Below are positions 2,205 to 6,282 of a stretch of 64,000 bases of DNA, piece after piece (the stretch's first letter is position 1; each line of letters starts with the position of its first letter). Origin of the DNA: Cyanobacteria bacterium P01_A01_bin.123 (GTDB lineage Bacteria; Cyanobacteriota; Cyanobacteriia; Phormidesmidales; Phormidesmidaceae); NCBI GenBank assembly GCA_039815185.1, contig JBCBZT010000006.1, forward strand, positions 152,239 through 216,238, given 5' to 3'. The notes beneath the pieces were generated by a model that saw nothing but the letters and a program-made list of their open reading frames with translations, was not told where the DNA came from and did not search any database. Position numbers and translations under genes: made by a program.

Positions 2205-2249
2205 GGCCCGTGACCGCGAATTGTGTTGATTGATCACAAGGAGTATACC

Positions 2250-5117
2250 GTGGCAGAAATTCTACTCAATGAAGGATTTGGTGGCAGTTTTCCTCCCCTG
2301 GGGTGGGCCTCGTTTATTGGTGAAAATGGGCTTGGGCCCGTTAGCAATTGGGTTCCCGGTACCGATGGCGGTTTTGATAATCGCAGTGTGGCTTTCGTCA
2401 GCCCCGAAGATGTTGAAGGCGGCTTGGCCGAAGACTGGCTGGTCACACCGCTGCTGCGACCCAGTGCAGACAACAGCACGTTTAGCTTCGACAGCAGACT
2501 GGTTTTCCCAGAGGATCAAGGCAGTATCTACACGGTGCGGGTCTCCACGGAAAGTCAAACCGACCCTAATAGTTTTGACACCGTGGAAACCTTCTTGGAG
2601 ACTGACTTTGCAGTTGACGCAGATGGCAATGCGACCTACAAGACGTTTGAGATTGATTTAAGCCCCTACCAGGATCAAGACGTTTATGTCGCCCTGGTAA
2701 TGGAAAATGACAACGGTGATTTTTTTGCCATCGACGATGTTGGCGGCGTCCCCTTTGCACCTGATGTACTGGTGACAGAGTCTGGGGGAGAGGTCGCTTT
2801 GAGTCGGGGCGGCACGAACGAAACGCTGCAGCTAGCCCTGGCCACTGCACCGACCAGCGCAGTCACCCTCAACTTCAATACGGATACGGATGAGATTGGC
2901 CCAATTGCATCGGTGACATTTACCCCAGATAACTGGGACCAGTCACAACTCGTCAATTTAAATATTGCCAACCTTGGCGGTACTGGGGCACCGGAGACTA
3001 GCTTTAACCTCAGCTTTGACGTGGACAGCGATGACCCGAACTATGCGGGTCTTGAGATCGACGAGGTGGCAGGGCGAATTGTTGACAACGGTATTCCTGG
3101 CTTTTCGAGCTATCGCACGGTTGAAGAAACCTATGCTGACTTGTCCTTCTTGGCCGATGAAAATCCAGATCTAGTTGACTGGTTTGCCATTGGCGAAAGC
3201 TATGACAAAGTCACGCCTGGCGGAGCTGATGGCTATGATATCAACGTCTTGAAGCTGACCAACAAAGCGATTGAGCTACCAGACCGACAGGAAAAGCCGG
3301 TTATCTATATTGAGGGCGCGATTCATGCTCGCGAATATACCACGGCTGAACTGGTGACCCGCTTTGGCGAAGGGCTAGTCGCAGACTATGGGGTTGACCC
3401 CGATATCACCTGGCTGTTGGATTACCACGAGGTTCATATTGTGCCAGTGGCTAACCCTGACGGCCGCAAGTTTGCCGAACAAGGATATTCGTGGCGCAAA
3501 AATACCAATCCCAATCCGCCCCCTGGAGAAGAACCTGCCCCCTTCCCCAACTACGGGGTTGACCTAAATCGAAATTTTGATTTCAAGTGGAATGACGCTA
3601 AACCTTTTCCCGATGCTCTGCCGCCCTCTAGTGGGGATCCGGCTAGCAATATCTATCGGGGCGATGCCCCGGCCTCAGAACCAGAACTGCAAACCGTGCA
3701 AAATTACGTGCGGTCGATTTTCCCCGATCAACGGGGGCCAAATGATACCGATGCTGCCCCAGAGGATGCCACCGGGGTTTTTCTAGATGTCCACAGCTTT
3801 GGTAATCTCGTGCTTCACCCGTGGGGGTGGACGGATGCAGATTCTCCCAATGAACCCGCTTTACGCACCTTGGGTCGCAAGTATGGCTACTACACCGGAC
3901 AGGGGCCTGATGGAGCCTACGATGTTGATGAGGGGTTAGGGCTTTACCCCTCTGATGGGACTTCTGATGACTGGGCCTATGGGGAACTTGGGATAGCGGG
4001 TTACATTATCGAGCTGGGGGAAACGTTTTTCCAACCGAGTGAAGATTTTGAAAACGAGATTCTGCCGGAGAACCTGCCAGCGTTAACCTACATGGCTAAG
4101 GCCGCTCGCCGCCCTTACCAAACCCCTGCCGGGCCGGAAGCCTTGGATGCTGAGCTAGACATGGCCCAGGTGGTGGCGGGTAAGTCAGTGGTGCTAACGG
4201 CGCTGGCTGATGATACTCGCTACGATGATGGCGCTGTCACAGATGATGAGGTCGGCACCGTCAACGATTTACCAGAACCTAGCCAAGATATCGTGGCGGG
4301 GCGTTATTCGATTGGCCTACCGTCTTGGATTCCAGGTGCTGAGCTATTTGACATGAGCGCAATGGATGGGGCTTTTGACAGCTCATCAGAAACCCTCACT
4401 GCCACTGTGGATACAGCAGGGTTGGAAGCGGGTCGCCACATGGTCTTTATTGAAGGTCAAGATGCTGATGGCAACTGGGGAGTCGCTGCGGCTGTATTCC
4501 TCGATATTGTGGCTGCACCAGATGATGCCGTTGTGACGGAGGGTTCTGATGGGCCAGAAACCCTGGTTGGCGACGATGCTCCAGATGTGATTTACGCGCT
4601 GGATGGTGATGATCGGGTGGCTGGCGGCCTAGGAAATGATGTCCTCTTTGGCAATGCCGGGGATGATGTGATGCGGGGCGATCGCGACAGTCGCTCGCCC
4701 GGTGGCTCCGGTGGTGGCGATGACATCATCTATGGCGGCGCCGGAAATGACCGCATTGGGGGCAAGGGGGGTGATGACAAGCTCTACGGTGATGAGGGTG
4801 ATGACACCATTTGGGGCGATGACGGCGATGATTTGCTTTGGGGCGGGAGTGGCAACGACACCCTAACGGGTGATGATGACTCTGGCGGGAGTGGTAGCGA
4901 TACCTTCGTTCTAGCGATTGGTGAGGGTACCGACACGATTACCGATTTTGAGGTCGGCACAGATCTGATTGGTTTGTTTGGCACGCTGAGCTTTGGTCAA
5001 TTGTTGCTTCGCCAAGATGCCCAGGATGCGCTCATTGAGTTTGGGAATGAGACGCTAGCCATCCTCTCAGGGATTGAGGCAGAGACTTTGATTGAGTCGT
5101 CCTTTGTGCCGGTCTAA
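2250..5117 (+). CDS. M14 zinc carboxypeptidase with N-terminal cleaved-adhesin/choice-of-anchor-J-like beta domain and RTX tail
   Basis: AAGGAG SD before GTG 2250; N-terminal LLNEGF...DWLVTP...IDLSPY...AIDDV pattern; HARE, DLNRN, DVHS, ELG motifs; RTX repeats. Confidence 0.85.
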   Translation: MAEILLNEGFGGSFPPLGWASFIGENGLGPVSNWVPGTDGGFDNRSVAFVSPEDVEGGLAEDWLVTPLLRPSADNSTFSFDSRLVFPEDQGSIYTVRVSTESQTDPNSFDTVETFLETDFAVDADGNATYKTFEIDLSPYQDQDVYVALVMENDNGDFFAIDDVGGVPFAPDVLVTESGGEVALSRGGTNETLQLALATAPTSAVTLNFNTDTDEIGPIASVTFTPDNWDQSQLVNLNIANLGGTGAPETSFNLSFDVDSDDPNYAGLEIDEVAGRIVDNGIPGFSSYRTVEETYADLSFLADENPDLVDWFAIGESYDKVTPGGADGYDINVLKLTNKAIELPDRQEKPVIYIEGAIHAREYTTAELVTRFGEGLVADYGVDPDITWLLDYHEVHIVPVANPDGRKFAEQGYSWRKNTNPNPPPGEEPAPFPNYGVDLNRNFDFKWNDAKPFPDALPPSSGDPASNIYRGDAPASEPELQTVQNYVRSIFPDQRGPNDTDAAPEDATGVFLDVHSFGNLVLHPWGWTDADSPNEPALRTLGRKYGYYTGQGPDGAYDVDEGLGLYPSDGTSDDWAYGELGIAGYIIELGETFFQPSEDFENEILPENLPALTYMAKAARRPYQTPAGPEALDAELDMAQVVAGKSVVLTALADDTRYDDGAVTDDEVGTVNDLPEPSQDIVAGRYSIGLPSWIPGAELFDMSAMDGAFDSSSETLTATVDTAGLEAGRHMVFIEGQDADGNWGVAAAVFLDIVAAPDDAVVTEGSDGPETLVGDDAPDVIYALDGDDRVAGGLGNDVLFGNAGDDVMRGDRDSRSPGGSGGGDDIIYGGAGNDRIGGKGGDDKLYGDEGDDTIWGDDGDDLLWGGSGNDTLTGDDDSGGSGSDTFVLAIGEGTDTITDFEVGTDLIGLFGTLSFGQLLLRQDAQDALIEFGNETLAILSGIEAETLIESSFVPV

Positions 5118-5141: not shown

Positions 5142-5176
5142 TTGCCTTTAGCCCCCCATTGAGGGGCTAAAGGCAA
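5142..5176 (+). terminator. Hairpin downstream of second peptidase
   Basis: TTGCCTTTAGCCCC / GGGGCTAAAGGCAA 14-bp stem. Confidence 0.7.
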
Positions 5177-5310
5177 ATTACCTGGGTGGTTTGTTAGGCG
5201 GCGTCTAGTTCCGTCTTGCAATAGGGTGGCTTTTATGACTCATTCAACTGGGCTAAATTTTTCTGTTTCTTTTCTGGAATGCGATCGCTGTCTGTTGTAT
5301 CTAAGCTCTA

Positions 5311-5375
5311 TAAACCACATCCGATTGAACATTGGAGTCTTTAGTTCATAGAGAACTATGAATCTGTATGTGGTT
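5311..5375 (+). repeat. Copy of ~65-bp quasi-palindromic intergenic repeat
   Basis: TAAACCACATCCGATT...AACTATGAATCTGTATGTGG; aligns with the reverse complement of 51710-51775. Confidence 0.7.
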
Positions 5376-5410
5376 AAGGTTGACATCCTGAATAATACGG
5401 AGGAGTTGTG

Positions 5411-5668
5411 ATGGCACAGCGGTTGAAACGGTGGGAATCACCCCGTCGGCAAGGCCGAAACGCAAAAGGAAAAGGCGGATCGGCACGCAAACGACAGTAT
5501 CTTAAACAGCAACAGCAGTTGAGGCAACGGTTAAAGCGGAACGAATCCCAGAAATCATCTAGTCAATCTTGCGGAGGAGAGGTTAACCCCTCTCTTTTTT
5601 TATGCATTTTTGCGGTTTTCACAGCCCGGCGCACTTTGCAAAATAAAGGTGTCATGCGGCCGAACTAA
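5411..5668 (+). CDS. Small basic protein, candidate alternative ribosome-rescue factor
   Basis: GGAGGAG SD at 5399-5405; R/K-rich N-terminus with KGKGGS; intrinsic terminator inside the frame. Confidence 0.6.
   Translation: MAQRLKRWESPRRQGRNAKGKGGSARKRQYLKQQQQLRQRLKRNESQKSSSQSCGGEVNPSLFLCIFAVFTARRTLQNKGVMRPN
5577..5601 (+). terminator. Intrinsic terminator inside ORF 5411-5668
   Basis: GAGAGG-TTAACC-CCTCTC followed by T7. Confidence 0.6.
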
Positions 5669-5781: not shown

Positions 5782-6282
5782 TTGAACAACAACTTTACGT
5801 ATGTCCCTGTATTGTCCGGTGTTTCCCAGATGCCAAGTAAGGCTGAGGGCACAACCTATCTCATTAAGCTCCACGCCTACAATCAAGAACATTTATTTGG
5901 CTCGGTTCAAAGGGGTTCGGTTTGTCTCAACGATATTGGTCACATTGCAGCAGACGAATGGGTGCAATCATCTCGAAATCGTCAGGAGATTGAGCTAGAC
6001 GGTTGGGCCATACTGCCCAACTATATTCAAGGGATTGTCGTTGTTCAACCCAAAATCGCAATTCGAGAAGCTGCAGGTTACGACCAAATCCGACAGGTTC
6101 AAAAGCCGCGATCGCTCTCCGCCTTTGTTGCCGGGTTCAAAGCTGCCGCTGCTAAGCGCATCAACCTATTACGCAATAATCCTGGGTTGCCCGTTTGGGA
6201 ACGCAGCTACCGTGAACGGTTGCTTTACACCCCTGCACAGCTCGACTACACCCGTCAAAGCCTGCAAGAATACCCGTTGTAA
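5782..6282 (+). CDS. RAYT/IS200-like HUH tyrosine transposase homolog with degenerate catalytic motifs (start may be ATG 5830)
   Basis: LFG..LNDIGHIAADEW, IELDGWAILPN, SLSAFVAGFKAAAAKRIN, PVWERSY are RAYT-family blocks; expected PNHxH reads PNYIQ. Confidence 0.7.
   Translation: MNNNFTYVPVLSGVSQMPSKAEGTTYLIKLHAYNQEHLFGSVQRGSVCLNDIGHIAADEWVQSSRNRQEIELDGWAILPNYIQGIVVVQPKIAIREAAGYDQIRQVQKPRSLSAFVAGFKAAAAKRINLLRNNPGLPVWERSYRERLLYTPAQLDYTRQSLQEYPL

Follow-up and report, generated by a model that had tools for sequence, protein, structure and literature searches.

What could be the role of a terminator-like hairpin that lies inside the reading frame of a small basic gene, upstream of the gene's own stop codon? 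The question is raised by a locus in a 64,000-nucleotide stretch of cyanobacterial DNA, here called the window, for which the original prediction had been a ribosome rescue factor made from a non-stop mRNA. Sequence comparison strongly supports a real, unnamed and widespread gene of non-stop design, and the probable activity of its peptide is weighed below against several alternatives.

The locus and its in-frame hairpin

The gene and the elements around it are laid out along the window as follows.

5142..5177, plus strand: upstream hairpin, 3' of the preceding gene (end 5117); -25.6 kcal/mol, z -5.0
5399..5405, plus strand: Shine-Dalgarno sequence GGAGGAG, 5 nt 5' of the ATG; read from the sequence
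5411..5668, plus strand: whole frame as far as the genomic stop, 85 residues; ATG 5411, TAA 5666-5668
5411..5536, plus strand: conserved basic core, residues 1-42; from profile and alignment, codon-position identity and AlphaFold
5465..5482, plus strand: KGKGGS codons, residues 19-24; similar to KGKGS of ArfA
5537..5572, plus strand: linker, unconserved, free of in-frame stops family-wide; from locus comparison
5573..5598, plus strand: in-frame terminator-like hairpin; from folding, family comparison, and random-window and arm-swap controls
5595..5601, plus strand: T7 run, read from the sequence; predicted transcript end
5602..5668, plus strand: read-through tail and genomic stop, unconserved, predicted to be mostly untranscribed; from family comparison

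The strong Shine-Dalgarno sequence of the original prediction is present as GGAGGAG, and the 85-residue frame is recovered by counting from ATG 5411, with GTG 5408 as an alternative start; the N-terminal half is indeed very basic (16 K/R and 1 acidic residue in residues 1-44), KGKGGS occupies residues 19-24 as claimed, and the hairpin and T7 run announced in frame near codon 62 were found at 5573-5598 and 5595-5601. The frame had been started at 5399, but this is the Shine-Dalgarno sequence, and the start codon is the ATG at 5411. The hydrophobic tail is there to be read in the sequence, but it is no conserved protein feature, being the pyrimidine arm of the hairpin and the T-run in frame.

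The gene is present in one copy in its source genome and is set between the strong upstream hairpin, which likely shields it from transcription coming from upstream, and a weak REP-transposase-like ORF on the other side; an Rfam search of the locus returned the upstream hairpin only, as a chance match. That ORF (5782-6282, plus strand, 166 residues) weakly resembles REP-associated tyrosine transposases (E 9e-4, far under the cut-off), and beyond it rimM, about 750 nt downstream, and a valine-pyruvate transaminase gene are on the opposite strand. A dispersed repeat of roughly 70 nt (5310-5381) lies immediately 5' of the Shine-Dalgarno sequence and has 18 more blastn rows in the same genome at 75-85% identity. 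Further upstream, 39-2060 and 2223-5117, both on the plus strand, encode tandem paralogous acidic proteins with Ca-binding-type repeats and a HAREY motif, which we take to be zinc-carboxypeptidase-like.

The hairpin itself has a core stem of 5577-5582 paired with 5589-5594 (-12.5 kcal/mol, z -2.5), and the T7 run begins in codon 62, where a transcript that ended would encode a peptide of 62-63 residues without a stop codon. As a single structure it is modest, was missed by a simple terminator scan and, under our own terminator rule, is weaker than is usual in the family (-9.5 against a median of -14.7). That it is nonetheless beyond chance follows from homologous loci, which carry the same element in frame.

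Conservation of the core and of the non-stop layout

Because first searches favoured long proteins, a profile of the core alone was used; it matched 117 of 401 genomes of the phylum, one copy in each and all in the window's class (186 genomes), and gave 1044 matches among proteins. The protein search gave 469 matches, and the named ones among the matches listed were nearly all cyanobacterial hypothetical proteins. The family is compact, since 388 of its 447 clusters among 1.84 billion representatives were found at E up to 1e-10; a functional name was absent in all 10 clusters looked up, and the ESM Atlas gave only cyanobacterial clusters without names. The query protein has no match in Pfam or NCBIfam, and a search of 39 members against both returned scattered weak matches, the best to Syntaxin (E 0.003, in the helix) and, in 2 members, to DUF6800 (E 0.038). 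No match was returned by PHROGs, by a PDB sequence search at E up to 10, by Foldseek with the 42-residue model or by a search of plasmid sequences for the core. Kinship with the SmpB C-terminal tail, suggested by a register seen by eye, was rejected at an hhalign probability of 0.1%, as was kinship with the basic C-terminal helix of ArfB at 0.2%. Norf1 was considered as an identity and set aside; it seems to be the ATP-synthase regulator AtpTheta, presumably a different protein from this basic core family.

The core, about 42 residues long and basic, has an extended N-terminal half (LKRWESPR..GRN.KGKGGSAR) followed by a predicted basic helix at residues 25-43; AlphaFold gives residues 3-24 an extended form at low confidence and makes 25-43 helical, with a mean pLDDT of 77 and a pTM of 0.41. 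Its codon positions 1/2/3 are 74/86/45% identical between 61 genera, which argues for coding selection. On the 3' side, members continue into a linker that varies, then a 'GG..xxxLPFF'-like stretch, and end in tails unrelated to one another. When cellular and phage copies are taken together, invariance is highest at L-K, E-S-P-R, R-N-x-K, A, Q and K, and not in the KGKGGS stretch: KG(K/R)GG(S/T) occurs in 53 of 63 genera (NxKGKGxxxR in 57) as against 5 of 23 phage copies, most of which replace KGKGGS and keep its flanking residues, and ESPR is found in all 23 viral copies.

All 117 loci were read, and at 113 of them a hairpin with a T-run lies 5' of the first in-frame stop; of the other four, one ends at a contig edge, and L180, L188 and L197 have an early stop and no terminator called. 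The same layout is found in 61 of 63 genera and at 79 of 80 named GTDB loci, which had been ranked by their similarity to the full query; of 432 metagenome loci, the best 80 show it in 76 cases, and all 9 additional genomes have it. None of these are counts of independent events, since the genomes are related. The linker in front of the hairpin is diverged in sequence and 3-97 nt long, and an in-frame stop before the T-run occurs in none of 61 genus representatives, where shuffled linkers would predict 26; the other two frames of the same representatives have such a stop in 18 and 42. Past the T-run, the next 60 nt are 27% identical between genera, and the tail, in whichever frame, has a length of about 2 to 83 codons and is unconserved. 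The T-runs themselves fall in all three reading frames (17, 20 and 24 of 61), and the predicted non-stop products are 52-83 residues long (median 64). A check set beforehand, that the terminator be conserved and the tail not, was thus borne out.

A loose terminator rule is weak alone, firing in 180 of 600 random windows (sampled from 4410 inside long ORFs of the same genome); the meaningful control is a stricter rule, under which the element is in frame at 108 of the 117 family loci versus 27 of the 600 windows. No two of the 61 hairpins have the same sequence, and their arms covary: the hairpins have a median of -14.3 kcal/mol with their own arms and -8.2 kcal/mol with swapped ones, and 225 of 3660 swaps were equally stable. 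This arm-swap test was used because RNAalifold, with 60 of the 61 hairpins aligned by MAFFT, was given stems of unequal length out of register and found 0 pairs. T-runs have at least 6 T in 8 nt at 57 of 61 loci (mean 6.7 of 8). The gene 3' of the element is on the same strand in 33 representatives, on the opposite strand in 27 and missing in 1, and the element is terminator-like and oriented for the small gene's own strand. At the level of sequence, a non-stop-mRNA architecture at the locus is strongly supported.

Homologs that stop before the hairpin had been named as a finding that would tell against the prediction; they are absent from most of the family but do occur, at 3 of 117 cellular loci, 15 of 48 loci of one family and 19 of 24 viral loci. 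They limit the universality of the feedback and not the reading of the window's own locus. The family in question is f30, in which 48 of 61 genomes match the core; all 48 loci were read, and the layout is non-stop at 33 of them, whereas the other 15, in seven genera, stop 1-10 codons past the core, one of these appearing frameshifted and one being a second, divergent copy. The 47-residue protein of Tumidithrix helvetica PCC 7403 is an example of the short form. Stop-bearing copies of 41-52 residues show that the core can stand by itself. A tmRNA is retained in all 17 stop-bearing genomes searched (of 18), and therefore loss of tmRNA does not explain the lost control. In a quick RF2 tree, where long branches were flagged, the lineage nearest the class root is non-stop and both forms occur within f30, from which the non-stop layout seems to be old and to have been lost or rebuilt more than once.

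Several of these loci have features of their own. The early-stopping copies of the seven genera (L227, L228, L235, L236, L238-L244, L246-L249) share a short N-S/T-S-like end, and at L245, from a related genus, these same final codons form a terminator hairpin, as though the non-stop layout had arisen anew. At L180 the stop-bearing cellular copy lies, by eye, directly 5' of a rimM-like gene, and the window also has rimM downstream.

Viral contigs carry 24 loci on 23 contigs, and 19 of the 24 reach a stop 1-8 codons past the core; the other 5, near-identical, are non-stop by our own rule. Several of the 19 have a terminator just 3' of the stop codon (L345, L346, L361, L364), and the neighbours at three viral loci that were checked belong to baseplate wedge, antirepressor, HNH and dCMP deaminase phage families. 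The phage search with the window's own core gave no match, and copies were found only with a phage-type query, which matches eight records of cultured cyanophages. The four cultured-phage copies that were read all have a stop right after the core and are short (S-CREM1 43, P-SSM7 47, A-HIS1 52 and S-SSM4 41 residues); those of S-CREM1 and S-SSM4 are unannotated, the latter immediately 5' of tRNA-Val, and that of A-HIS1 is described in its record as similar to Acaryochloris marina AM1_2888. A phage-weighted profile, searched without a positive control, gave no match when run on 51 class genomes lacking the gene.

The cyanophage copies of the core (L345-L367, L370, L456-L459) mostly have a normal stop, and many T4-like cyanophage copies read KSPKRS instead of KGKGGS. 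One 119-kb viral contig holds two copies (L347, L349). The five non-stop viral copies (L351, L353, L355, L357, L362) have TTGACA in the region of the hairpin loop, which may thus also serve the following phage gene as a promoter element.

A putative rescue factor and its alternatives

If the in-frame hairpin and T-run end the transcript before the stop codon, the result would be a non-stop mRNA, whose product tmRNA-SmpB would tag for degradation; the basic peptide would then accumulate only while trans-translation is overloaded, and would then likely bind the empty mRNA channel of a stalled ribosome and recruit a release factor. Stop-bearing copies, in some cellular lineages and most phages, would yield this peptide free of tmRNA control, as with ArfT. 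The first half of this scheme, a non-stop mRNA whose product is tagged and degraded and accumulates under overload, we consider highly probable from established tmRNA biology, because the hairpin is kept at 113 of 117 loci, early stops are found in none of 61 representatives and the tail is unconserved. For the second half, a release-factor-recruiting rescue factor is the best reading, a putative one towards which we lean with moderate confidence. The core protein shares traits of RF-dependent rescue factors in being small and basic and in having no GGQ motif, and tmRNA, SmpB, RF1, RF2 and an ArfB match are all present in the genome of the window. Points against the rescue-factor reading are the missing ArfA homology, the missing KH motif, the variability of KGKGGS in phages and the missing complementarity with ArfB.

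This last point rests on the 186 class genomes, of which 58 have both genes, 59 the basic-core gene only, 42 ArfB only and 27 neither; no complementarity is seen among them, and 33 of the 42 ArfB-only genomes belong to one family of small genomes. The profile used, NF006718, which we take to be ArfB, matched in E. coli and Caulobacter too.

The alternative that survives best, which we nevertheless consider unlikely, accepts the non-stop control as real and makes the peptide some other translation effector, such as a ribosome-binding inhibitor, a hibernation-type factor or a partner of tmRNA-SmpB. The architecture data fit it equally well, as does the lack of complementarity with ArfB; the most invariant residues lie outside KGKGGS, and the KH motif, which in excerpts of PMC6881298 is common to ArfA and BrfA and contacts 16S U534, is found in 0 of 63 genera and 0 of 23 phage copies. 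Carriage of a stop-bearing copy by phages would suit host shut-off or ribosome steering as well as rescue. Against it, both of the small basic genes of such a layout that are characterised in excerpts of PMC6881298 and PMC10107115 are rescue factors, and a strong inhibitor is hard to reconcile with cellular lineages that keep a stop-bearing copy. Should the rescue reading fail, a conserved tmRNA-gated effector common to hosts and phages would still be left.

Far less probable is that the hairpin is a leaky terminator, a processing site or a 3' stability element, that many transcripts reach the stop codon and that the variable tail destabilises the full-length protein, tmRNA not being the main control. 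The below-median strength of the window's hairpin and its escape from the simple scan are in keeping with leakiness, and the hydrophobic end of full-length E. coli ArfA is described as promoting its decay in excerpts of PMC8012679, but a tail of about 2 to 83 codons, unconserved and in any frame, is unlikely to be a selected degron, the T-runs are long, and an RNase cut at the hairpin would likewise yield a non-stop mRNA.

A non-stop frame might also have as its main purpose to tie the decay of an upstream cistron to trans-translation, the peptide being secondary, as in the precedent of zntR-arfA (excerpts of PMC10107115). An M48 peptidase gene does lie about 100 nt upstream on the same strand at 54 of 197 loci (e.g., L113:1716-2702 and L132:1743-2723), where co-transcription and tmRNA-coupled decay of this kind are possible; the other 143 loci, the window included, have no M48 neighbour within the DNA examined per locus, the peptide is highly conserved, and stop-bearing and phage copies retain it without a non-stop frame, which makes coupling very improbable as the main purpose. 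Lastly, an ordinary small basic gene that lost its stop codon without consequence, to which the stop-bearing copies with a terminator just 3' of the stop might point, is already disfavoured and barely credible in view of diverged linkers of 3-97 nt with 0 of 61 stops against 26 expected and of the non-stop lineage near the class root in the quick tree.

The gene is likely a candidate new rescue factor, which phages would make free of host control. If this reading is right, most filamentous cyanobacteria and many unicellular ones would have in it their back-up to trans-translation, the stalled ribosome would be engaged in a new way, and phages would be shown to carry a deregulated copy; 59 of the 186 class genomes have this gene and no ArfB match. 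The fullest version, which we put forward only tentatively and with somewhat less than even confidence, is that the factor is the fourth of the release-factor-recruiting kind, evolved independently, ancient in oxygenic cyanobacteria and normally held down by tmRNA through its own terminator, and that cyanophages, those of Synechococcus and Prochlorococcus among them, carry a stop-bearing copy to keep host ribosomes recycling outside host control.

Comparison with ArfA, BrfA and ArfT

Our literature search, which covered few subscription papers, found no description of a release-factor-recruiting rescue factor in cyanobacteria. PMC4235212 and PMC8874680 were consulted as well; a word search of the main text of bioRxiv 10.64898/2025.12.20.695498, whose supplements could list the gene, found no mention of rescue, and the words WESPR and HESPR are absent from the supplement of PMC6514570.

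Like ArfA (YhdL of E. coli, PF03889), the predicted product is a small basic protein from a non-stop mRNA with an F/L-rich read-through tail. Excerpts give mature ArfA as 52-55 residues (PMC6299226) and the E. coli arfA mRNA as also cut by RNase III (PMC8012679, PMC10107115). The differences are that the ArfA motif lies near the C-terminus and the motif here in mid-core, followed by a 19-residue predicted helix, that KH is absent, and that there is no significant profile match, PF03889 finding nothing at the locus at E up to 10. The original appeal to the ArfA motif comes out weaker: hhalign against E. coli ArfA does place NxKGKGxxxR in register, but with a probability of 1.8%, which is not significant, and most phage copies replace KGKGGS.

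BrfA (YqkK of Bacillus subtilis, RF2-dependent) is likewise small and basic, with a terminator in frame and a dispensable tail, and its non-stop product is about 62 residues long (excerpts of PMC6881298); the terminator-like hairpin in frame before the stop is a feature that the gene shares with both ArfA and BrfA at the sequence level. BrfA differs in having, in the same excerpts, N-terminal helices and a basic C-terminus with KH, where the protein here has an extended N-terminal half and then a basic helix, and stop-bearing and phage forms exist here; homology to BrfA was checked only through the negative Pfam, NCBIfam and PDB searches.

ArfT of Francisella (excerpts of PMC6299226; ArfT-like family in PMC6514570) is about 40 residues long and basic, with KKGGS and a normal stop, and the 41-52-residue stop-bearing forms resemble it in size, basicity and stop codon, whereas most cellular members here are non-stop and no ArfT-related Pfam family was matched. 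The gene is BrfA-like in layout, yet filed in no known family, and a review, in the excerpts consulted (PMC8012679), expects more small factors of a kind undetectable by homology.
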